In this document: one piece after another, positions 1 to 20,000 of the stretch
Layout of the letters: each line of letters starts with the position of its first letter
How positions within the stretch are numbered: the first letter of the stretch is position 1
Assembly: GCA_000442015.1 (NCBI GenBank)
Contig: KE560848.1
Coordinates: forward strand, 123,603 to 143,602
DNA: 20,000 nucleotides
Source of the DNA: Rozella allomycis CSF55
Taxonomy: Eukaryota
Reading direction: 5' to 3'
The notes under the pieces: generated by a model
Told to the model about the DNA's origin: nothing
The model's database searches: none
Seen by the model: the letters and a program-made list of their open reading frames with translations, nothing else
Position numbers and translations under genes: made by a program

Positions 1-3000
1 AGTGAATATGAGAAATTAGAAGCGATATTGGACGAGATAAATGAAAAAATGCGAACGATTGAAGAAGAATTGAAGAGTTTGAATGACGTTTTGGAAAAGA
101 CTAGAGAAGAATCTATAGAGTTGAATGAAAAGCATATGTCTTTGATTAATGAAAGAAATTCTTTATTGAAAATGATTAACAATTTGCAAGAACAATTGGA
201 AGAGAGAGAAAGAGTCATTGTAAAGTTGGAGAATGAAATTGAAGCAAACAATAAAAGAATGATAGGTGAGATGGATAAAATGAATCAAGAGGCAAAAATA
301 AAACAAATTGAAATGAAAAATTATTATGAATCTTTCTTGTCACAGAAAGATTCAGAAATTCAAAACATTATCAATGCTGCCAAGAAAGAAACCAAAGAAA
401 AGTCTACAAATACTTTGAATAAAGTAATGCAACAAGATTCAAGTGAAGATCAACGTTTGGAATTGTTGGCAGATTATCAAATTGAAATTAAATTGAAAGA
501 TTGCAAGATCAATGACCAAGAACTGGAAATAAAAGAAATCAAACAAGAAAATGTTAAATTCAGAGAGGAATTAATTCAGTCAAGAGCTGCTGTTGAATCA
601 TCCAATTCAATAAATCAATCGCAGGTTGAAAAGATGAAAGAAATCCAAAATTCGTTTAATGAATTATCGAAAAAGTACACTCAATTGTTGAAAGAAAGGA
701 CAAATTTAGAATTTGATTTTGAGCAACACAGGATTGACAAGGGCAAACTAGAAAACGTAACATCTCAGTTAAACAAGGAAAATGAATATATAAAGAATCA
801 GATAAACGATTTGCAAAAAGAAAGAGAAATTTTGCATAACGAGTTTGTTAATTCAAAGAATCAAGTTTCTTCTTTATACGCCGTGAAGCAGGATATGGAC
901 GCATTGTTGGAATTCAAAGAGATCACTTATCAATCTTCCATAAAAGATATGGAAAACAAGATTAATGAAGCATATCAGTTGATTGAAAGCAAAGAATCTA
1001 GAATAAAATTACTGGAAGAGTCCATAACGCAATTGCAAATGTCTTTAGACTCTAAAACACAGATGCAACCAACGAGTGTTCCAATAGACGCATCAATCTT
1101 TGTGCAGCAAGAGGAGATGGTTGTTAAATTGTCTGAAATGACGCTGCTGAATTATTCTTTAGAAGACAAGATCGATTCACTAAAGTTGAAGATTGCGAAT
1201 ATGGCAACAACAGTGCATGAATACGAAGACAGAGGAAAGGTTTTAATTGAAAAGATTGAGAAATTGATGGAAGAAAAGAAGATGCTGAAAAGGAATATTG
1301 CTGATTTGGAAATTTCATTGGACCAATCAAGGAATGTGATTGAAAAGGACAAAAGAGAGATTCAGCGGCTGGAAGTGGCGGTGTTTGAATTGAATGAGAA
1401 TTTTAGTGTGGTAAATAAACGAGTTGGCGAGGTTGAGTTTATGTATTATGAAAAGACGAGAGAATGTGATTTGCTTGGAGTTGAGATTGTTAGAGGGAGG
1501 GAAGAAAAGGAGAGAATTTTTAATGAAAATAGAATTGTAGAAGAAGAGTTGAAGGAAAGAATTGCAAAGGAAGTGGAGAATGTTAAGGGGTTGCAGAGTG
1601 AGATTGAAAAGATTAAGAGTGAAAAGTTGAGTGTTTTGCAAGAGAATCAAAATTTAGTGTTTGAGAAGAATGTTTTGGAGAGTAATGCGAGGGAGTTGAA
1701 TGAAATGAATGAGATTTTGAATAAATCGTTGGAAGAAACTAGAAGTTTATTAAAAAAGCAAGCTGAAAAGAATATTGAAGAGAGAGATCATGTAAGTGGA
1801 GATAGAGTTGAAGTGTATAAAGATAGAGATGAAGTCTTTGGAATGATAAAAATTATAGAAAAAGAAAGAGATGAGATTCAAAATCATTTAAATAAAGCTG
1901 AATTAAAGATTCATGAATTGGAATTGAAGGGCCATGAAAGGGAAATGGAATTTCAATTATTAAGAGAAAGTTTGTTTAAACAACAAGAAGAATCAAAATT
2001 GTTAAAAGAAGAAATAAATGAAAAGGAAGAATCTTTAATTAAACTAGAAAATTCATTGAAAGAAAATGAATTGATTAACAAAAATCTAAAAATAGAAATT
2101 GAAGAAAAAGAAATTGAAAGAAACAAAATGATGAAAGAATTGAATAGCTTTAAACAGATTAATGAAAATTTACAGAATAGATTTGAAAAGATTGAAATTG
2201 AAAATGAAAGAATGAAGATTGAGAACAAAACAATTAATGAAAAGAATACAAGATTAAATAAAGAAATTAATAATTTAGAAAAGAGAAATGAAATATTACA
2301 TTTAGATTTAAAAGAGAAGAATCTAATTTTAGCCAATCAAGAAAAGGAAATTTCCAGAATAAAGGAATTGGAGAATACTGTAAAAGAAAATGAAGAATTA
2401 ATAAATTCATTAAAGAATGACAATTCTAATTTGAAACGAGAGAAAGAAGAAGGTGAAAAGATGGTAAAAGCGTTGAAAAACGAAAAGAATGAGCTAAATC
2501 ACAATTTGGAAATTTCAGAAACAGAAATTGAATCATTAAAGAATGAAATTAATTCGTCTAAAGTGACAATTGAAGAAATAATTAAAGAAATGAAAATTGT
2601 TAAAAATGAAAATGAAACATTTCAAAAACAAATCAATGTTTATAAAGAGGGTGAAGAATTGTTAAAAAAGTCTCTAGACAATGGCATTAAAGTTGATGAA
2701 CTAACAAGATTGTTGCAATCAAAGTTGATTGAGAAGCAAACTAGAATAGAAGAATTGAATCTTCAAGTAATCAAAGTTGAGAATGAAAATGAATCTTTAA
2801 GAAATGAATTAAAGGCTTTGAATGTGAAACATGAAAAAGAAATGATTGAATTTGTTAATGAAAAGGAAGAGATTAAAAGAAACAGAAAAGATTTAAAAGA
2901 TTTGAAAAAAGTTGTAGATGAATTGAATAGAATAATTAAAGATCAAAATGAATTGATAATAAAGAGAAATGAAAATGAGAGAATAAAACTCCAAGAAATT

Positions 3001-6000
3001 ACAAATGTGTTGAATGAAAGAGAAGAAGAAAATAGAGTGATTAAAAATAGATTAAAAGTAAAAGAAGAAATGGTTGAAAAATTGTTAAATGAAAAGGATG
3101 AAATAGAAAATAGTTTGAAAAGGAAGAATGAAACTATTCAAGGGTTTGAAAATGAAAATATTGATTTGAAGATAGAAATTGAATTGATAATTAAAGAAAA
3201 AGAAGATTATGAAAAAAAGATTAAGGACTTGAAAGGAAGAGATGAATTGAATAGATTAGAATTGAAAGAAAAGAATCATAGAATTTTGGAGTTGGAAAAT
3301 GAATTAAAGTATTTAAAGGAAACTATTTGTAAGAATGAAAAAGATTTGAATGAAATGAATAAGAAAATAATAAATCTAGAAAATGAAAATGCTGAGATTG
3401 AAAATGAAATGAAAAAGATTAAGATTGAAAATAAAGAAAAAGTAGAGGAATTGAATAAAGAAATTTCAATTAAAGAGAATTTAAGAATTAAAGAATTTGA
3501 AGAAAAAGAAAATTCAATTTCTAAAAATAGATTATTAGAAAATGAATTGAATCTTATTAAAGAAGAATTAAAAGGAATTGAAAAATTAAGAATCGAGTTG
3601 GTTGAAAAGTCTGCAAAGATAAATGAATTGGAAATAGAGATTAATGATAAGAATGATGCTATTTTAGAATTGAATAGAAATATTTTACATTTTCAAAACT
3701 TGATTGTTCAATTAGAAAAAGATAAAATTGAATCACTAAAAGACAATGTAGAAAAAGTTGAAATTGAGATGGAAGCATCAAGTCAAGATATGGCAATACA
3801 AACAGAAGTAGGTGAAAATATTATTAAAGTTGCTTCAGCTGATAATGGAACTGATGATAACAAAAGTAATTATTCAACAATTGATATAGTAGATAACTCT
3901 AATACAACAAATGATTCAATGCTTGCTTCAAATGCTTATATTTCTAATAAACAAATTGTAGAATTGGAATTGAAATTGAATCAAGTTTCAGAATTGAATT
4001 TGGAGTTGATTAAATCTAAAAATGAATTACAAAATGAAATAGAAAATCTTGAATTAAAAATCAACAAGGAATCAGATCTTAACATGAATTTAGTTGAAGT
4101 GAATAAATCTCTTAATGAATCATACAAAGAATTGTTAATGAAATTGCATGATGTTGAGTCTCACAATGCAGATAAAACAAATCAAATAGAATTACTTAAA
4201 GTTAGAATAAATGAAATAGAAAATGAATTAAAAATTAAAGATTCAGAAAATTCAAATCTAGAAAATAACTTTCAAAATCAACAAAAAGAATTCCTGAATT
4301 TATTAAACAGTGAAAAAAAAGAGTTAAATTATGCTTTAGAAAATAAGAATAAAAAGATTATTGAATTAGAAACTGTTTTAAATGCATTAACAATAAATAT
4401 TCAAGATATTTCAAAATTATTACAAAAATCTAATCTAGAAAGTGGCTTGGTTATTCAATCTAAAAATAATTTAGAAATTCAATTGGCAGAAAATGAAAAA
4501 GAATTAATAAAATTGAAACAAGAAATAAAAGAAAAACAATCTGAATTTGAATTGTTAGAAAATGAACGTTTAAGAAATAAAAATGTTATTAATGAAATGA
4601 AGATGAAATGTTTAAATCTTGAAACAGAACATTTGAAAAACGTAAAACAATTTGAAGATGAAATTGAAAACCTTAAACTGTCTAATGAATTAATAAAAGA
4701 GAAGCTGAATGTTTCAAATGAGAAAGAGTCCAACGTTACAAATCTAGCCATTCAAATTCAGGGGTTGCAACAAGATTTATTAAAACAAGGAAAAGATTTA
4801 AATAATTTAAAAAATGAAAACAATAAATTAAATAAATTGATAATCAAAGAAAAAGAAAATAAATATCATCTTCAAAGTCAACTACAGAATATTTTAAACA
4901 GCAAACAACTTTTAGAAGATGAAATGAAATTAGTTGTGCATGAAAAAGAATCAGCAATAAAAGATGTAAATAAACTATCTTTACAACTGAATGAGACCAA
5001 GTCAGAATTCTTGAATAAGATTCTAGAATTAAACAAGATTAAATTAGATTATGAAAATGAATTTATTAAACACCAAAATCAAATTAAAGAATTATTAAAA
5101 GAAAAGGAAAATTTAAAGTCTTTGAACGAAATGATACTGACCAAGTTGAAACAAGAGCAATCAGAGAATTCTTTAATTACAAAGAGTGGAAACAAACAAA
5201 ATGAATTGGAATTTCAATTTGAAAAAATTTATAAAGAAAATGAAAAGTTGTTGAAAGAGAATTCTGTTTTATTGGAAAACGTTAAAGAATTAAAGATTGA
5301 AATTTCTGAATCTAAAAATAGAAACGAAGAATTAGAAAATGAAGAAATTGAAAAGGATTCAATAATTGTTGAGTTGAAAGACATTAATAAAAGATTAAAT
5401 GATAAAGTTGAAGAATATAAAGAAGAAATAAAGGATTATCAAATTCAAATAAATCAATTTAAACAAGATATTAATACGTTAAATGAAAGGATTGTAAAGA
5501 TTGAAGATGCAACTGAAAATTACAAATTAGAAATTACAAGGGTAATCGATGAAAAGGAAAAGGAAATTGAAAAGCTTGTTAATGAATATGAGAAAATAGA
5601 TGAAAAGAGTAAATGCTTAGTTGGAGAAATGGAAATAATTTCCAATGAAAATGTTAAGCTCTTAAATGAAAATAATTTGTTAATGAAAGTAGTAAAGGAA
5701 CTAGAAGAGAGAATAAAATTATATGAAAAGATGGAATCCAATTTCTTTAATGAAAGGAGCGAATTGATTAATGAAATTCAAGAGAGCAGACAAAAGATTA
5801 AAGAGTATTTGAATCAAGATATCCAACTAACTATAGTTAGTGAACCCCTTATAGTTGAACAAAGAGTTGAAGAGAGAGTAGAAGAGAAAAGTATTGAATT
5901 GAAAGATGAAAATGTTCAGACAATGGTTAATTCATCTGAAATTGAACAATTAATAATTCAATTAGAATCTGTTACAGCTGAAAAGGAATATATACAAGTA

Positions 6001-9000
6001 GTGTTGAATGAAAGAAACAATAAAATTTCAGAGTTGGTTGATGAAATTGAATCATTAAAACCATCTGTTCCAATAAAGCAAGACGTTAAAAGTGTTCCTG
6101 CTTTTCAAATGAAAGATAAAGATAATCTCGTTGAAATATTGGAAAATGAAATCAAAGTAATGCAATCGTCAACTTTTCATTGTAGATTAAATCAGAAGAA
6201 ATCGAGTCTTTGAAGAAAGCTATTGAAATTCAATATCAAATAAATGAAACTCTTAAATTACAAAATGAAACACCTCAAGTTAACCATCCTGAAATTGACC
6301 AATTAAAATCTGAAATAAACTCTCTAAAGTTTGAATTGGATGCAAAAGAAAAAGATATTAAATCAATGAGGAATAATTATGAACATGAGTTGGATAGATT
6401 AAAGATGGATATCCATAATCTTCAAAATGAACTATCTGATAAAGAATTGGCATTTAAAAAGAAGATTGAATTAAAAGAAAGTGAAATTTTAACTTTAATG
6501 TTACAAAAGAGAAAAATTGAAGAATCTTTTAAAGAATTTGAATTGAGATCAATGGAGACTATTAAAGATCTTTCAGAAAAGAATGAAATTTTAATGAATG
6601 AGAATGGAGAGTTGATAAAGTATAAAATTAATCAAGAGAATCTATTGAAAGAGATTGAAAAGTTGGAAAACATTTTGGAAAATGAAGTTGAAAAGAAAAG
6701 TGAACTTGATACTGTCAAAAAGGATGAATTACATGAAAGGAATAAAAATAATTTCAAAATGGATTTGGTGGATTTGGCAGTTAAAAAGTTTAATATTATT
6801 CTACAATTAAAACAACAAGAATTTAGTTCAAAAGTTGAATCTTTAAATAAAATAAATCAATTCAATCAAGAAGAAATAAATTCAATTCAAAGTCAATTAA
6901 AATCAAAAATAAAAGAAAATGAAGATTTAAATTTAGAGTTTAATCTATACAAATCTCAAAGTGGCACTCAAATTAAAGATTTGAATTTAAAAGTTACAAA
7001 TCTAAAAGAAGAAATGAAATCATTGAAATTGAAGTGTTTGGAATTAGAAAATTTGAATAATTCGTTAAATCTTAATCTATTGGATTCAGCAACATCACTA
7101 GAGAAAAAGACTTTGGAGCTTAAAGCATTGCAAAATGAGCTTTCTACTAAGATTGATGAAATGAATGTTCTAAACATCAAATTATTGCAACTAGAGTCAA
7201 TTCCTGAGTTATTGAAATTAGAAAATAATAAATTAAATGAAATCAATTTAGAATTGAAAAATAACGTTGAAATTGGGAATGAAAAGATTAAGAATTACAT
7301 TTTGGAAATTTCAGAATTAAAGACTAGGGTTGATCAGTTGACGAGAGAGAATGAATCTTTAAAAGAATTGAATGGATTACATATAGAAATGTGTGATAAG
7401 TATAACAAATTGGTTAAAGAAAAGGAATCCTTGTTGATAACAATTGACCAGTAATAATATTTGAATGCCTCACATAGGTTAAATGAGAAAGAACAGGAAT
7501 TGAAGAGAATCATTAAAGATTTAGAGGTTCAATATGATGAAGAAAAGAATCAATTTGAAATGAAATTTAGTGAATGCAGAAATGAACTATTAAAAGCTAA
7601 ACAAGAATATTCAACATTAGTGGAAAAGAATCAGCTTGATGAAGCAATGATTGAACAACTGAATCTCAATAATAAAATACTAAATGAAACAATCCAATTA
7701 AAATCCACTGAATTTAAAAAAATTCATGATGAATTGAATGGAAACCTTTTGGAAGTCAATGAACGCTTGAACAATTCAAATATTGAAATTAACTTACTAA
7801 AAGTGAAATTGAATGAAAAATTGAATGAAATTGATAAACAGAAAACAGAAAATGAAGAATTGGAAATTTCACAGGCAAAGAATTTGGAATTGATAAAGAA
7901 AACAACTGATGCATTGCAAGTGGCGATTGCAGATAATAATGATCATAAAACAAGGGTGGAAGATTTGAGTAGAATAAAGAATGAAATGGAAATGGAGTTA
8001 AAATGTAAGGCTGTTCAACTTGACCAAGTGAATGTTGAATTGAAAGAGAATAGTGAAAAATGCAGCGAGTATTTGATAAAGATGAAGAGTTTCAAAAAAG
8101 AGTTGGATGAGATTGAGTTTAAATTTGGGGTTTCTAATAAAGAGAATAATGAATTGAGATTGGAGAATGGGAAAATGAATGTAGAAAGCTTGAAATTGAA
8201 AGAAGATAAAGAATTGATTGAGAATGAATTAAAGTTGCTGAAAATAGATTTTGCTGAATGTTTGAATGATTTTGGCAAGTTGAAGAATGAAAAGGAGAGT
8301 AATGAAGGGAGATTGAGTGAATTGGAGAAGCAAGTTGAAGAAAAGAATGAAATATTGTTAATGCTGACAAATAAGAATAAGTGTTTGGAAGAAGAGAATT
8401 TAGTTTTGAAGAAAGAAAAGATTGAAAATGAGAATGAAATGCAGGGGTTGAATAATGAAATTTCTGAATTGAAGAGAGAGATTGAATTGATTGAAAATAA
8501 ATTGAATGACTCTTTAATGAATAAAATAGAATTGAATAAAAGAGTAGAATATCTAGAAAAAGAGTTTAATGAATCTAATGAGCAATTGAAGAGAACTGGC
8601 ATTGTTTGTGAGCATGTTAAAGGAGAAGCTAAACTATTGATGGCACGTTTGAAGAGTCAAGAAGCGATAAACTTTCAACTAGAACAAGAGAAATCCAAGC
8701 TAGAAGATTCATTTAATGAAAAGAGGTGTGAATTAATGAATGAATTGGAGACATTCAAATTGATAAAAGCGAGTTATGAAAAAGATTTGTTATTTTTGGA
8801 GAATAAAGTTAAATCTCAAATTTTAGTTATTAATGAAAAATCTAAAACTATTTATAGATTGGAAGAATTGGTTGAATTTTATGAAAAGAAGAATGAAGAA
8901 ATTAAAGAAGAATTGGAAAAGATTAAAGGATGGTATTTGAAAAAGAAGAGTGAGAATAATGAATTGGAAATTTTGTATTTGAATAAATTTCATAATTTGT

Positions 9001-10895
9001 TGAATCAAGTGAACAAGGAGAAGTTAGAAGTCAAGGATTTTAAAGTAGACGAAATCAAAGATGTAAAAGTAGAAGATTTCAAAGAGTTTAAAGCTGATGA
9101 TGTAAAAGTTGAAGAGTCATTGTTGTTGAATAATCAAAGGAAATTGGAAATAGAAGAATTAAACGATTCAATTGAACTAAAAGATAAAAGAATAAATAAA
9201 TTAGAATTTGAAATAAAAGATTTAAAGAATGAATTAGAGAAATTTGAAAACGAATTAAAAGTGAAAAATAAAAGTGAAATTGAATCTAAAAATAGAATTG
9301 AAATTTTAGAAAATTTATTAGAAAAATCAGAAAAGAAGAATGAAGAAAGTTTGAAGATTATTCTTGAAATGAATCAACTTCCTTTTGATTATTTAAATGA
9401 AATTAAATTGAAAGATGAAGAAATTAAGAAATTGACATTAATCATTGGAGAGACAAAGTTAAAGAGGGTTGAATTGGTTAATGAACAAGTAAAGGAACAA
9501 GTAAAGGAAAAGGTATCTAATGAAACAACTAAAGAAGTTGATGAATCAGCTAAGGATAAAGTATCAAATAGGGAAGAAGGATTGAAAAGAGATGTTTTAC
9601 TTGGCAATAAAAATGTTTCACTTACTAATAAAGAAACTTCACTTGAAGAATATAAAATGGCTGTTTATAGAGCTAATAAAGAATTGAGACAATGGATTGA
9701 AAGAAAGAAATTGACTAGACTTTTGCCAGTCTCATTAAACAAAAAAGATGATTTAAATAGTTTAATAGAAGAATTGCTTACTCTACATCAAACTATTTAT
9801 GATTCAATTGGATTTTCTAATAAAAGAATAGAAAAGGAATATCCAGATTTAATTGCTCAAATTAACACTCAACAAGAATTAATCAAAAATTATCAACTTC
9901 AAATCACTCTTCAACAAGATGACATTATTTCTCTTTCTAATCAAATAAATTCTTTAAAATCTTCTGTAAATGAAAATCCACTTTGGTTTAAAGAAAAATT
10001 AATTCTCTTGAATCAAATTGAGACCTTTAAAGAGAAAATGGATTCAAATGATAATAATCAATGTTTAAGTAATTCTTCTGTTAATAATTCTAATGATGCT
10101 CTCTACAATACTTTTAATAAGATGTTTAAAAATATTATTCCTATTGATTCTGATTTAAATAAATCATTTTCGCTTCTTTATCAATTCATTAATAAACTCA
10201 AAAGTGAATTAAATTCTTTACAAAATGAAAACAACAAGAAACAATCTCAAATTGATTTTCTTTCTAAATCTTTAAATTCAATTCAACTAGAAAATAAAAA
10301 TTTAAACAATAAAATTGATTCTTTAAATATTGAAATACTAAATGGTTTGAAATCAACTAAAACAAAAGGTGATGTTAAAGAAGAGTCAACTATCAAAGAT
10401 GTAGATGAATTGTCGCCCTTAAAAGAAGAAACAGAATCTTCATCATCAAATCTATTGGATAAGTATACGTCTGAAATAGAAATATTAAATTCTCTTAGAT
10501 TAAATCTTTTGAAACAAAATCAACAACTTTCAATCAAACTTTCTGAACAAGATAAAATAATCAATCACTTGTCAATTCAATTAAACCAAATCCCTCTCTT
10601 AAACACTCAAATAAATGCTCTACAATCACATTCGTCAAATCTAAACAACAAAATCAATATTATCATATCCTCTATTCATTCCATTCTATCATATCATTTT
10701 AACTTAGAAGTCACAGAAAATAATATTGATGAACTATTCTCTATACTTGAATCACAAATTGAAAATATTAAATCTGAATCAAACACCTGCAAACAGCAAC
10801 TACAAAATTCATTTGTCCAAGTAGACGTCTGGAAAAATCATTACGATCAACAAAAGAGGGAAAACTCTCATCTCATCTCTCTTATCACTCAATAA
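1..10895 (+). CDS. Giant coiled-coil protein, 5'-partial; join(<1..6156,6186..7450,7478..10895), >=3612 aa
   Basis: Frame is open from base 1. ORFs 28..6213, 6210..7454 and 7461..10895 join in frame by removing two GT-AG micro-introns (junctions ...ENEIK|IKSEEIESLKK... and ...TIDQ|LNEKEQ...). Uniform E/K/L/N/I-rich heptad composition throughout; no family recognised. Confidence 0.88.
6157..6185 (+). other. 29-nt spliceosomal intron (phase 0)
   Basis: GTAATGCAATCGTCAACTTTTCATTGTAG; removal exactly corrects the frame change between the 2061-aa and 414-aa ORFs. Confidence 0.88.
7451..7477 (+). other. 27-nt spliceosomal intron (phase 2) containing in-frame TAA TAA
   Basis: GTAATAATATTTGAATGCCTCACATAG; removal deletes both stops between two same-frame coiled-coil ORFs. 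Confidence 0.88.
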
Positions 10896-11478: not shown

Positions 11479-11550
11479 TGCCTTCAGGGAGGATTGAACA
11501 CCCGACCTCATGTTTACAAGACATGCGCTCTACCACTGAGCTATGAAGGC
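11479..11550 (-). tRNA. tRNA-Thr(UGU), intronless
   Basis: Reverse complement GCCTTCA TA GCTC AGTGGTA GAGC G CATGT CT-TGT-AA ACATG AGGTC GGGTG TTCAATC CTCCC TGAAGGC A folds as a cloverleaf with anticodon TGT and discriminator A. Confidence 0.96.
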
Positions 11551-13039: not shown

Positions 13040-13477
13040 AATGTGTTTGAGTGGGCAATGAATTGCATAAATAAATGAATGTATTTAACCTTTCAGGACT
13101 AAATTTTCTAATTGATTATGATTAGTATTTTGGTTCATTTTTATCAATTTGCCTTCAAAAGAAGCAAATATTCTCACATAAAAAGCGCAAAAATAGATAT
13201 TTAATTACCTAGAATCTAGACTTTTAAATATACTTAGAGGTTAAAAAGTTTATTGTGTTAAAATTGCGAGTGGGCTCGTCATAATAACACGAGAACAACT
13301 ATTGCCTCTGAATTTTCGCAGTTTTTCTACAGCCATGCGATATCGATTTATGTTCCTGGTTTGGAGGTGCCGGTGGCCCTTCCCATTTAGAAACGTCGTA
13401 ACCAAGTTCTTTATATTTTCATACTTGTTGTCTTTAGCTAGATGCCAAAAGTAACCATAAAACATTGCAACCTCTTG

Positions 13478-13783
13478 TGTCGTACCAGGGATTCTCATCC
13501 CAATTCATAGAGGGATTCTCATCCCACCTTCCTTAGAATAATTATCAAAGAGAGGAGTCATAACTCTCAAAGGATCTCTTAATACTGACGGATCTCTATT
13601 CTGATACTAATTATAGAAAGGGATACTATTTATAGAAAAGACCCACATATAAAACTCTAAGGAGATATCAATAAATAGAACGGGGGATAATCCATTCTCA
13701 ATCGACATCTGTTTTTACTTTTTATCTTACGATTTATTATCCAATTTACGAGGATTAAGGTTCTATGAGCGCATGGAGCGACA
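13478..13783 (+). mobile_element. Solo LTR (306 bp) with 5-bp target-site duplication TCTTG
   Basis: Termini TGTCG...CGACA; TCTTG at 13473-13477 and 13784-13788; near-identical inverted copy at 19332..19661. TATAAAA at 13648 and AATAAA at 13670 in the LTR sense. Confidence 0.95.
13488..13526 (+). repeat. 24-bp tandem repeat in the LTR 5' part (1.6 copies), unit GGGATTCTCATCCCAATTCATAGA
   Basis: Directly visible; contains the inverted repeat GGGAT-N4-ATCCC. Confidence 0.9.
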
Positions 13784-14456
13784 TCTTGGATAACTCTTTC
13801 CGAAACCTCAAATTGGCACTTGGCGTATTCGTTGTAAATGACAAGCTTTAGGGCTGGTACGTCCCGCATTTCAACAATTTCAAGTAGAAACAATTCAAAT
13901 TGAGTAGCAGTTTTGATTTCTTTTTGAAGAAACTCAGTCAATCGAATGTCATAATTTTTTCCTCTTGGCTTGGGATACTCTATCCATTTGTCGTAGAATT
14001 GAGTTTTCTCGGTTTTATCAGTTTGAATTGAAGGAAAAATATAGCATATTAGTATTAATTTCAACCAATCAAATTTCATTAAGGAATTTTATTAAATCAC
14101 TATATCACTGCAAGTGACACTTTTTAAGCTATAGAATTCTTTTAAGTGAGTCAGTGACTAAGTCCCAGGCCATTGATATATTTTTCTCAATATTAGCTTC
14201 TGCTTGATATGCAGTCAGTGAAAGGTGTTGAATAATTCAAGTCACAAAAAACTCTTCGTTGAGGCACAAATTATAGAAATCATTGAGTTTTGGCATTATT
14301 TTTCAAATAAATTATAGGAGTGAAATTTACAAATTCAAGGCCACTGAGATCATCTTACTTGTCTTTTTATGAACAGAAAGAGTACTAAATATTACGTATC
14401 CACCAGAAAGAATTTCACCAGCAAAGTTTAAGGGGCATACTAATATTGTAGCTTTA

Positions 14457-19249: not shown

Positions 19250-19331
19250 TTTAAATCACCTACTTCCCTGGCGAAGTTTCGTTATTTCTGTTCCCCATGT
19301 TTTGGTTCTCTTTTTCCTTCGGCGTTGTTTG

Positions 19332-19661
19332 TGTCGCTCCATGCGCTCATAGAACCTTAATCCTCGTAAATTGGATAGTAAATCGTAAGATAAAAAGTAA
19401 AAAACAGATGTCGATTGAGAATGGATTATCTCCGTTCTATTTATTGATATCTCCTCAGAGTTTTATATGTGGGTCTTTTCTATAAATAGTATCCCTTTCT
19501 ATAATTAGTATCAGAATAGAGATCCGTCAGGATTAAGAGATCCTTTGAGAGTTATAACTCCTCTCTTTGATAATTATTCTAAGGAAGGTGGGATGAGAAT
19601 CCCTCTATGAATTGGGATGAGAATCCCTCTATGAATTGGGATGAGAATCCCTGGTACGACA
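19332..19661 (-). repeat. 3' LTR (330 bp)
   Basis: Reverse complement of 13478..13783 with about 5 substitutions, two 1-nt indels and one extra 24-bp unit (counted by eye); TGTCG...CGACA termini. Confidence 0.95.
19589..19651 (-). repeat. 24-bp tandem repeat in the LTR (2.6 copies)
   Basis: TGGGATGAGAATCCC(TCTATGAAT) repeated on the + strand. Confidence 0.92.
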
Positions 19662-19673
19662 TTACCCCCTTCC
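19662..19673 (-). promoter_or_regulatory. Polypurine tract (plus-strand primer)
   Basis: Minus strand reads GGAAGGGGG-TAA directly before the TG of the LTR. Confidence 0.85.
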
Positions 19674-19784
19674 AGTAGCTGGAGGCGTTTAAAATAATGA
19701 AATTTCCTATCTGTTTCGATAGTTCCATTCTTGAAAATGAAGATTATCCCGGAGGTAAAGTACCATTTCTTGTACGTATATATG

Positions 19785-20000
19785 ATAATAATGTGTAGCC
19801 AAGCATCATACGGAGTGATTACTTGATTATTATGTGTATTTTGAATGTTAGTGGATATAATAATGTGTAAGCAAGTATCACGCAGAGTGATCACTTGATT
19901 ATTATATGGGTGTTCATGTGGATATAATAATGTGCATGGCGAGTATCATGCGGAATGGACACTCGATTATTATATGTGATTATTCGCAAGGATAATAATG
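19785..20000. repeat. Degenerate tandem array of ~49-50-nt hairpin units with variable spacers (periods 72, 67, 68 bp; 3 full units and the start of a 4th)
   Basis: Units start with ATAATAATG at 19785, 19857, 19924 and 19992; the three full units end with ATTATTAT at 19833, 19905 and 19973; an inner inverted repeat C(A/G)AG...CT(T/C)G is present in each. Confidence 0.88.

Follow-up and report, generated by a model that had tools for sequence, protein, structure and literature searches.

An array of imperfect palindromic units ahead of the 3' LTR of a high-copy retrotransposon in Rozella allomycis

The analysed window is a stretch of 20,000 nucleotides from a contig of Rozella allomycis CSF55 (KE560848.1, positions 123,603 to 143,602 of the forward strand), and all coordinates given here refer to positions within it. 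Apart from the array considered below, the window has the look of a compact, AT-rich eukaryotic genome, with small genes that encode RsfS, RPA-type OB and LRR domains, and it is not plant-like. Positions 1–10895 of the plus strand are occupied by three back-to-back open reading frames (ORFs) of 2070 (open at the window start), 414 and 1144 amino acids, with a GC content of 22–28%. These ORFs are crowded with short A/G-rich tandem repeats, appear coiled-coil-like and gave no Pfam family above the cut-off; possibly they are parts of a single giant gene of coiled-coil-like type, interrupted by small introns or by changes of frame. A tRNA-Thr gene (anticodon TGT) at 11479–11550 of the minus strand lies between a very low-GC block and a block of 30–40% GC, about 1.9 kb from a solo LTR.

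Two LTRs of a single family, oppositely oriented, are found in the window (Table 1). The LTR close to the window end is accompanied by a second copy at 13479–13783 (plus strand), which has TCTTG on both flanks and whose arms are 98–100% complementary to 19332–19661. At the 5' end of the LTR there is a 24-nt tandem repeat, the unit of which contains the palindrome GGGATTCTCATCCC; it occupies 19589–19660 with 2.7 copies, and 13487–13526 in the solo LTR with 1.7 copies. The solo LTR splits one apparent minus-strand ORF into two parts, 13250–13498 and 13657–14079, with the translation running into the LTR on one side. This ORF (13250–14079) is apparently a gene disrupted by an old solo-LTR insertion.

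Read on the minus strand, which is the sense strand of the element, the end of the window comprises an array of hairpin-forming units followed by a unique non-coding stretch, a polypurine tract (PPT) and the 3' LTR. The array thus lies in the 3' internal region of an element copy, the body of which lies outside the window together with the end of its last ORF. Sense frames 0 and 2 contain stops across 19662–20000, including inside the array, while frame 1, after stops near its 5' end, is open for 123 codons that begin inside unit A, cross units B and C and continue into the LTR. Because of these stops, the array is considered non-coding. A protein search with the 123-codon frame returned 40 candidates, none of them with an E value of 0.001 or better. 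An earlier note on this DNA, made from its letters only, had placed the array in the 3' region of a retrotransposon, about 110 nt upstream of the PPT. The setting proved correct, being the non-coding 3' internal region of an LTR retrotransposon, and the distance is 109 nt.

Table 1. Positions of the hairpin array and of the associated retrotransposon features in the window
Feature	Position	Strand	Remarks
Solo LTR, same family, 305 nt	13479..13783	+	flanked by 5-bp duplication TCTTG; one 24-nt repeat fewer
3' LTR, 330 nt, TGTCG...CGACA	19332..19661	-	24-nt tandem repeat, 2.7 copies, at 5' end
Polypurine tract ctggaagggggtaa, abutting the LTR	19662..19675	-	direct reading; LTR edge from inverted-repeat arms
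Unique non-coding stretch between array and PPT, 109 nt	19676..19784	-	direct reading
Hairpin unit C, 49 nt	19785..19833	-	CAAGT...GCTTG; middle-helix U-G wobble; C-A mismatch at loop-closing pair
Spacer S2, 23 nt	19834..19856	-	direct reading
Hairpin unit B, 49 nt	19857..19905	-	CAAGT...ACTTG; perfect inner helix ATCAC/GTGAT; 18/18 pairs formed
Spacer S1, 18 nt	19906..19923	-	direct reading
Hairpin unit A, 50 nt	19924..19973	-	outer helix 8 bp; middle helix CGAGT/ACTCG; inner helix 3/5 pairs
Spacer S0, 18 nt	19974..19991	-	identity 50% to S1, 43% to S2
Fourth unit, 3' outer arm (ATTATTAT)	19992..19999	-	direct reading; rest beyond window end

The array (19785–20000, minus strand) is composed of three full hairpin-forming units of 49–50 nt and the last arm of a fourth. 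Since this arm is still present at 19999–19992, the array continues past the window, and the number of units given here is a minimum. In the element sense, every unit consists of ATAATAAT, C(A/G)AGT, one purine, 5 nt, a 5-nt loop, another 5 nt, (A/G)CT(C/T)G, 7–8 unpaired nt and ATTATTAT. As an illustration, unit A reads ATAATAAT-CGAGT-G-TCCAT-TCCGC-ATGAT-ACTCG-8 nt-ATTATTAT. Each stem comprises 18 pairs, broken by a 1-nt bulge and a 7–8 nt bulge. We designate the units A, B and C in the element sense; they are equivalent to units 3, 2 and 1 of the earlier note, which numbered them from the low coordinate. Reading of the minus strand bears out the unit formula given there, as well as the divergent spacers of 18–23 nt, which measure 18, 18 and 23 nt and share 43–57% identity.

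Units follow one another head to tail in three copies, spaced by 72 and 68 nt in a repeat search, and Tandem Repeats Finder reports a period of 68 nt at 19851–19976 (1.9 copies, 83% matches, score 180). The first six nucleotides of S1 and S2 are identical (ATCCAC), and all spacers end with CAT or CAC. From the shared beginning of S1 and S2 it follows that a hairpin and its spacer were duplicated as one unit. Units A and B have the dinucleotide TA on both flanks, and in unit C it is missing on one side.

Some of these features would be compatible with a group of interpretations that we consider very improbable, in which the units are small-RNA precursor hairpins, MITE-like inverted-repeat transposons inserted three times, or a cassette of spacers targeting other loci. 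Every unit has 8-bp terminal inverted repeats, those of units A and B are flanked by TA on both sides, and the spacer sequences differ. Independent insertions are, however, at odds with the one-sided absence of TA in unit C, and with the regular 68/72-nt spacing and the common spacer starts and ends, which indicate tandem duplication. In addition, a motif search through the 20 kb gave three exact matches, all within the array, and a covariance model built from the three units and run over the window with filters off recovered just those three, the next best match having an E value of 2.1. A MITE-like element was accordingly rejected, as the window contains no solitary unit and unit C has no TA on one flank. 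When searched with up to 3 substitutions, S0, S1 and S2 match nothing else in the window, which argues against a targeting role for them. The small-RNA cassette proposed in the earlier note also fits poorly with hairpins of only 18 interrupted pairs and arms of 19 and 25–26 nt, which are short for a Dicer substrate.

Pairing within the units was assessed in an alignment of three rows, each consisting of a unit and the sequence following it. In the structure originally suggested, 51 of 54 cells form standard pairs (94.4%) and three are unpaired, and if the 3' partners are slid by 1–3 columns, pairing falls to 24–49%. In the predicted ensemble for 19700–20000, unit hairpins dominate, with pair probabilities of 0.28–0.75 in the outer helix and 0.73–0.85 in the middle helix, while the competing pairing, in which the 3' arm of one unit joins the 5' arm of the next one across the spacer, reaches 0.05–0.18. 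Minimum free energies of units A, B and C are -9.4, -10.4 and -6.6 kcal/mol. Relative to shuffled sequences, they correspond to z scores of -2.1, -3.1 and -1.4, and the sense units thus fold better than the antisense ones (-0.1, -2.6 and -0.4). For the whole array, z is -1.98 in the sense orientation, with 7 of 200 shuffles folding as well, and -1.43 in the antisense. When 49-nt segments of similar GC content from the rest of the window are compared with units A, B and C, the share that folds at least equally well is 10%, 1% and 11%, respectively. Unit A can alternatively form a continuous 8-bp helix that includes one G-U pair. The palindrome of the unit is therefore real, and its folding energy is ordinary.

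Dominance of the unit hairpins in the ensemble and the better fold of the sense strand speak in favour of a tandemly multiplied cis-acting RNA module that would bind Gag/nucleocapsid or a host factor for export or stability, with avidity increased by the presence of several copies. Its place in the genome, between the coding part and the 3' LTR, is also like that of retroviral elements. We regard this possibility as tentative and somewhat less than probable. The stability of the hairpins is ordinary, as stated above, and 8 A-U pairs have to close over a bulge of 7–8 nt. The majority form of unit A has two inner pairs broken. Wobble pairs, which could indicate the strand on which the structure is formed, are equal evidence for both, with one case each: the U-G in unit C favours the sense strand, while the C-A in unit C and a minority form of unit B become G-U in the antisense.

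A known RNA family could not be assigned to the array, in agreement with the earlier note, and this also weighs against a cis-acting RNA. At the gathering score, Rfam detects nothing but a tRNA in the whole window, and when the limit is relaxed to E up to 10 in the segment 19300–20000, one match appears, to a Dictyostelium snoRNA, at chance level (E 8). Searches beyond the window were likewise negative. The hairpin pattern has 0 matches in metagenome contigs and 0 in viral contigs, and the PPT-LTR junction has 0 in metagenome contigs. In prokaryote genome contigs, the hairpin pattern gave one match, on a Clostridiales MAG contig, which is single, non-repeated and without neighbouring units and was judged to be due to chance. 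A looser arm-arm-arm pattern occurs at 21 viral loci, all without the inner helices, and these were also judged to be chance occurrences in AT-rich DNA. In a limited survey of titles and abstract openings, covering Rozella allomycis retrotransposons and tandem repeats or hairpins near the PPT of LTR elements, such an array was not described.

Comparison of the three units with each other reveals that hairpins share 78–86% identity and spacers, as noted, considerably less. The better preservation of hairpin segments, which had been proposed from the sequence alone, is thereby confirmed, and the excess of spacer divergence over hairpin divergence is among the observations consistent with a cis-acting RNA. 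The same is true for the outer helix, the 8 pairs of which are constant in all three units, just as had been claimed. Variable columns are absent from the outer arms (0/16), and they make up 7/20 in the inner and middle helices and 7/14 in unpaired positions. All stems taken together differ from the unpaired positions (Fisher p 0.04), while the inner and middle helices alone do not (p 0.49).

Pair changes among the three units include two double-sided ones (A-U to G-C and C-G to U-A) and one change to U-G. The compensatory change reported in the earlier note (CAAGT/ACTTG in unit B, CGAGT/ACTCG in unit A) and the U-G wobble of unit C are indeed present in the sequence, and would be expected of a cis-acting RNA. 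Nevertheless, two double-sided changes were equalled by 101 of 500 shuffles, in a comparison of only three related units, so covariation is no greater than in shuffled sequences. The earlier conclusion that structure rather than sequence is conserved is not shown by these data: the best-kept parts, namely the outer arms and the CRAGT/RCTYG helix, are strictly constant in their sequence, and such constancy is silent on pairing. At positions that vary, pairing is mostly but not always retained, and statistical significance is out of reach of three related units.

To view other copies of the element, contigs from the public DNA sequencing runs X1, X2 and X5 were aligned to 19300–20000. We obtained 1356, 868 and 43 contigs, respectively, as is characteristic of a highly repeated family. 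In all three DNA runs, many different loose ends converge on the outer edge of the LTR at 19331–19334, as expected of dispersed insertions. An X5 contig (record 23, 19634–19834) spans from the LTR into unit C, and other contigs (X1 record 5, X2 records 14 and 15) extend from the unique stretch before the array into the units. Joined forms were observed that skip 68 nt (19910 to 19979), equal to one unit, or 101 nt (19739 to 19841), including unit C. Contigs that connect the LTR with the array, together with the forms in which a unit is skipped, indicate that the array belongs to the element and that the number of units varies among copies. A generic minisatellite unlinked to the LTR family, the outcome that the earlier note had named as contradicting its proposal, is thus not what the DNA contigs display. 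The existence of family members in which a unit is missing is in turn an argument against a cis-acting RNA. Other joined forms skip 67–106 nt in or beside the 24-nt repeat of the LTR. The RNA run X15 yielded no contig on 19300–20000 and is uninformative on expression.

Using a threshold of 5%, 29 polymorphic substitution sites were listed, 11 of which are within the array. They are found at 12/330 positions of the LTR, 6/123 of the unique stretch (19662–19784), 4/59 of the spacers (19839, 19840, 19843 and 19851, all in S2), and 3/41 of the unpaired hairpin positions. Among all classes, the inner helix has the highest share (4/30), and no polymorphic site was detected in the outer and middle helices (0/86). 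In the latter, 3.8 sites would be expected after adjustment for A/T versus G/C positions (P 0.023) or 4.3 under a uniform distribution (P 0.014), that is, P is about 0.01–0.02 for a partition that was made post hoc. Paired positions taken together do not differ from unpaired and spacer positions (4/116 vs 7/100, p 0.35). Absence of polymorphism in the outer and middle helices is a further point in favour of a cis-acting RNA, while variability is highest in the inner helix and loop, where proteins usually recognise a hairpin.

Minority letters in the inner helix are informative with respect to pairing. Those at 19958/19959 restore both broken pairs of unit A, so the majority unit A is the form with two broken inner pairs. 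The minority letter at 19815 turns the C-A of unit C into U-A. In unit B, the pair that closes the loop is broken by the minority letter at 19881. At seven positions distributed through the aligned segment (19840, 19796, 19776, 19731, 19693, 19556 and 19456), nearly all contig depth of the family differs from the letter in the window, indicating that the window copy has several private changes compared to the bulk of the family.

If the recognised part of the unit were its invariant AU-rich outer helix together with the CRAGT/RCTYG helix, the hairpins could be imagined as a modular, multimerised protein-binding RNA signal of an early-diverging fungal LTR retrotransposon, functionally comparable to the transport or packaging elements in retroviral 3' untranslated regions, with the number of units tuning export or packaging. 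In this specific form the proposal appears rather unlikely to us.

Constancy of sequence instead of pairing is also what would be anticipated if the repeated palindromic units were bound as DNA by a dimeric protein, in the role of an enhancer, an insulator or a silencing target. The short dyad formed by the core ATCAC-5 nt-(A/G)TGAT has the dimensions of a dimer site, and the LTR of the same element also carries a tandem short palindrome. A comparable array of binding sites is located in the untranslated leader of the Drosophila gypsy element. Dyad symmetry often marks transcriptional activators of retrotransposons (PMC2829016). However, the short dyad is precisely the variable part of the unit (4/30 polymorphic positions), the invariant 8-nt arms are 33–34 nt apart and hence too distant for one dimer site, and promoter elements are not usually located outside the LTR and downstream of the coding sequence. 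A DNA-level array of binding sites, comparable to the palindromic motifs of Sireviruses, is therefore improbable, and a weaker rival than the cis-acting RNA hairpin.

Taking the above into consideration, we favour, with roughly even confidence, the interpretation of the array as a short minisatellite of variable copy number, with a unit of 68–72 nt that includes an imperfect palindrome, in the 3' untranslated internal part of an LTR retrotransposon present in many copies. It has the attributes of 3'-UTR tandem repeats, namely a non-coding position before the PPT and 3' LTR, monomers arranged head to tail, and monomer number and sequence that are variable among copies. As to the hairpins themselves doing a job, there are weak hints. 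The invariant outer and middle helices, the contrast between hairpins and spacers, the pair changes, and the three of four inner-helix variants that restore pairs would also fit selection on the hairpin.

Both the origin of the minisatellite and its changes in length could be due to reverse transcriptase switching templates, or slipping, between co-packaged RNAs, as has been proposed for plant Tat/Ogre elements and their hypervariable 3'-UTR tandem repeats. Pausing and re-annealing may take place at the hairpin and at the 8-nt arms common to all units, in which case a jump would keep the register in the hairpin and lose it in the spacers. Jumps of this kind would keep the arms uniform and leave the spacers scrambled, and a separate function would not be needed. 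Apparent compensatory changes in a DNA palindrome might likewise stem from template-switch mutation instead of selection. According to one study (PMC8794818), stems can be created by template switching, which can also fix the pairing of their bases. The palindromic 24-nt repeat of the LTR, with its differing number of copies, fits a replication habit of the element rather than two separate adaptations.

If the array is only a minisatellite, the pattern of 3'-UTR tandem repeats, best described in plant Tat/Ogre elements, extends to a very distant host, and its palindromic unit makes it suitable for studying how template switching builds repeats and seeds satellites. If, on the other hand, the hairpins are functional, they would be one of the rare candidates for a cis-acting RNA signal located 3' in an LTR element that is not a retrovirus, and a repeated signal could be dissected unit by unit. 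Neither reading has a bearing on a long-standing open question.

Among known systems, Sireviruses of plants possess palindromic repeated motifs in their non-coding regions (PMC2829016). The RM boxes of these elements resemble the array described here in that a motif with dyad symmetry occurs many times in non-coding parts of an LTR retrotransposon, close to the 3' LTR (PMC2829016). Motifs of Sireviruses are short, with a CGG-CCG core, and they form CpG islands and occur in the LTR and beside env (PMC2829016), whereas units of the array are 49–50 nt long, AT-closed and positioned outside the LTR.

The constitutive transport element (CTE) that MPMV and SRV retroviruses carry and the direct repeats of Rous sarcoma virus (RSV) are situated in the 3' untranslated region, before the 3' LTR. 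With the CTE of MPMV/SRV-1 and the RSV direct repeats, the array has in common that structured or repeated RNA is placed between the last gene and the 3' LTR (PMC3856414). RSV direct repeats flank v-src near the 3' end of the genome and are present more than once; they are 115 nt long (PMC3856414), in contrast to the AU-closed hairpins of 49–50 nt in the array. As neither the sequence nor an Rfam model matches, we do not claim membership in these groups, and the resemblance, possible by analogy, would be in how the array works.

Hypervariable tandem repeats in the 3' UTR occur commonly among Tat-lineage elements (PMC7004042). In plant Tat/Ogre elements (Ty3/gypsy), just as in the element studied here, short head-to-tail repeats lie in the non-coding interval that separates the coding part from the 3' LTR, and the number and sequence of monomers vary among copies of one family (PMC7004042). 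The unit of the array differs from that account in being a long imperfect palindrome with invariant 8-nt arms, the terms "hairpin" and "palindrom" having 0 occurrences in PMC7004042. Our host is not a plant, and the kind of repeat is common to both, while a common lineage is not claimed, the gag-pol region being outside the window. Hypervariable 3'-UTR tandem repeats of plant Tat/Ogre elements were reportedly described by Macas et al. in 2009. Tandem repeats in the 3' UTR of LTR retrotransposons are thus already known, and the case presented here is distinguished by its unusual palindromic unit and by a host far from the best-described examples.
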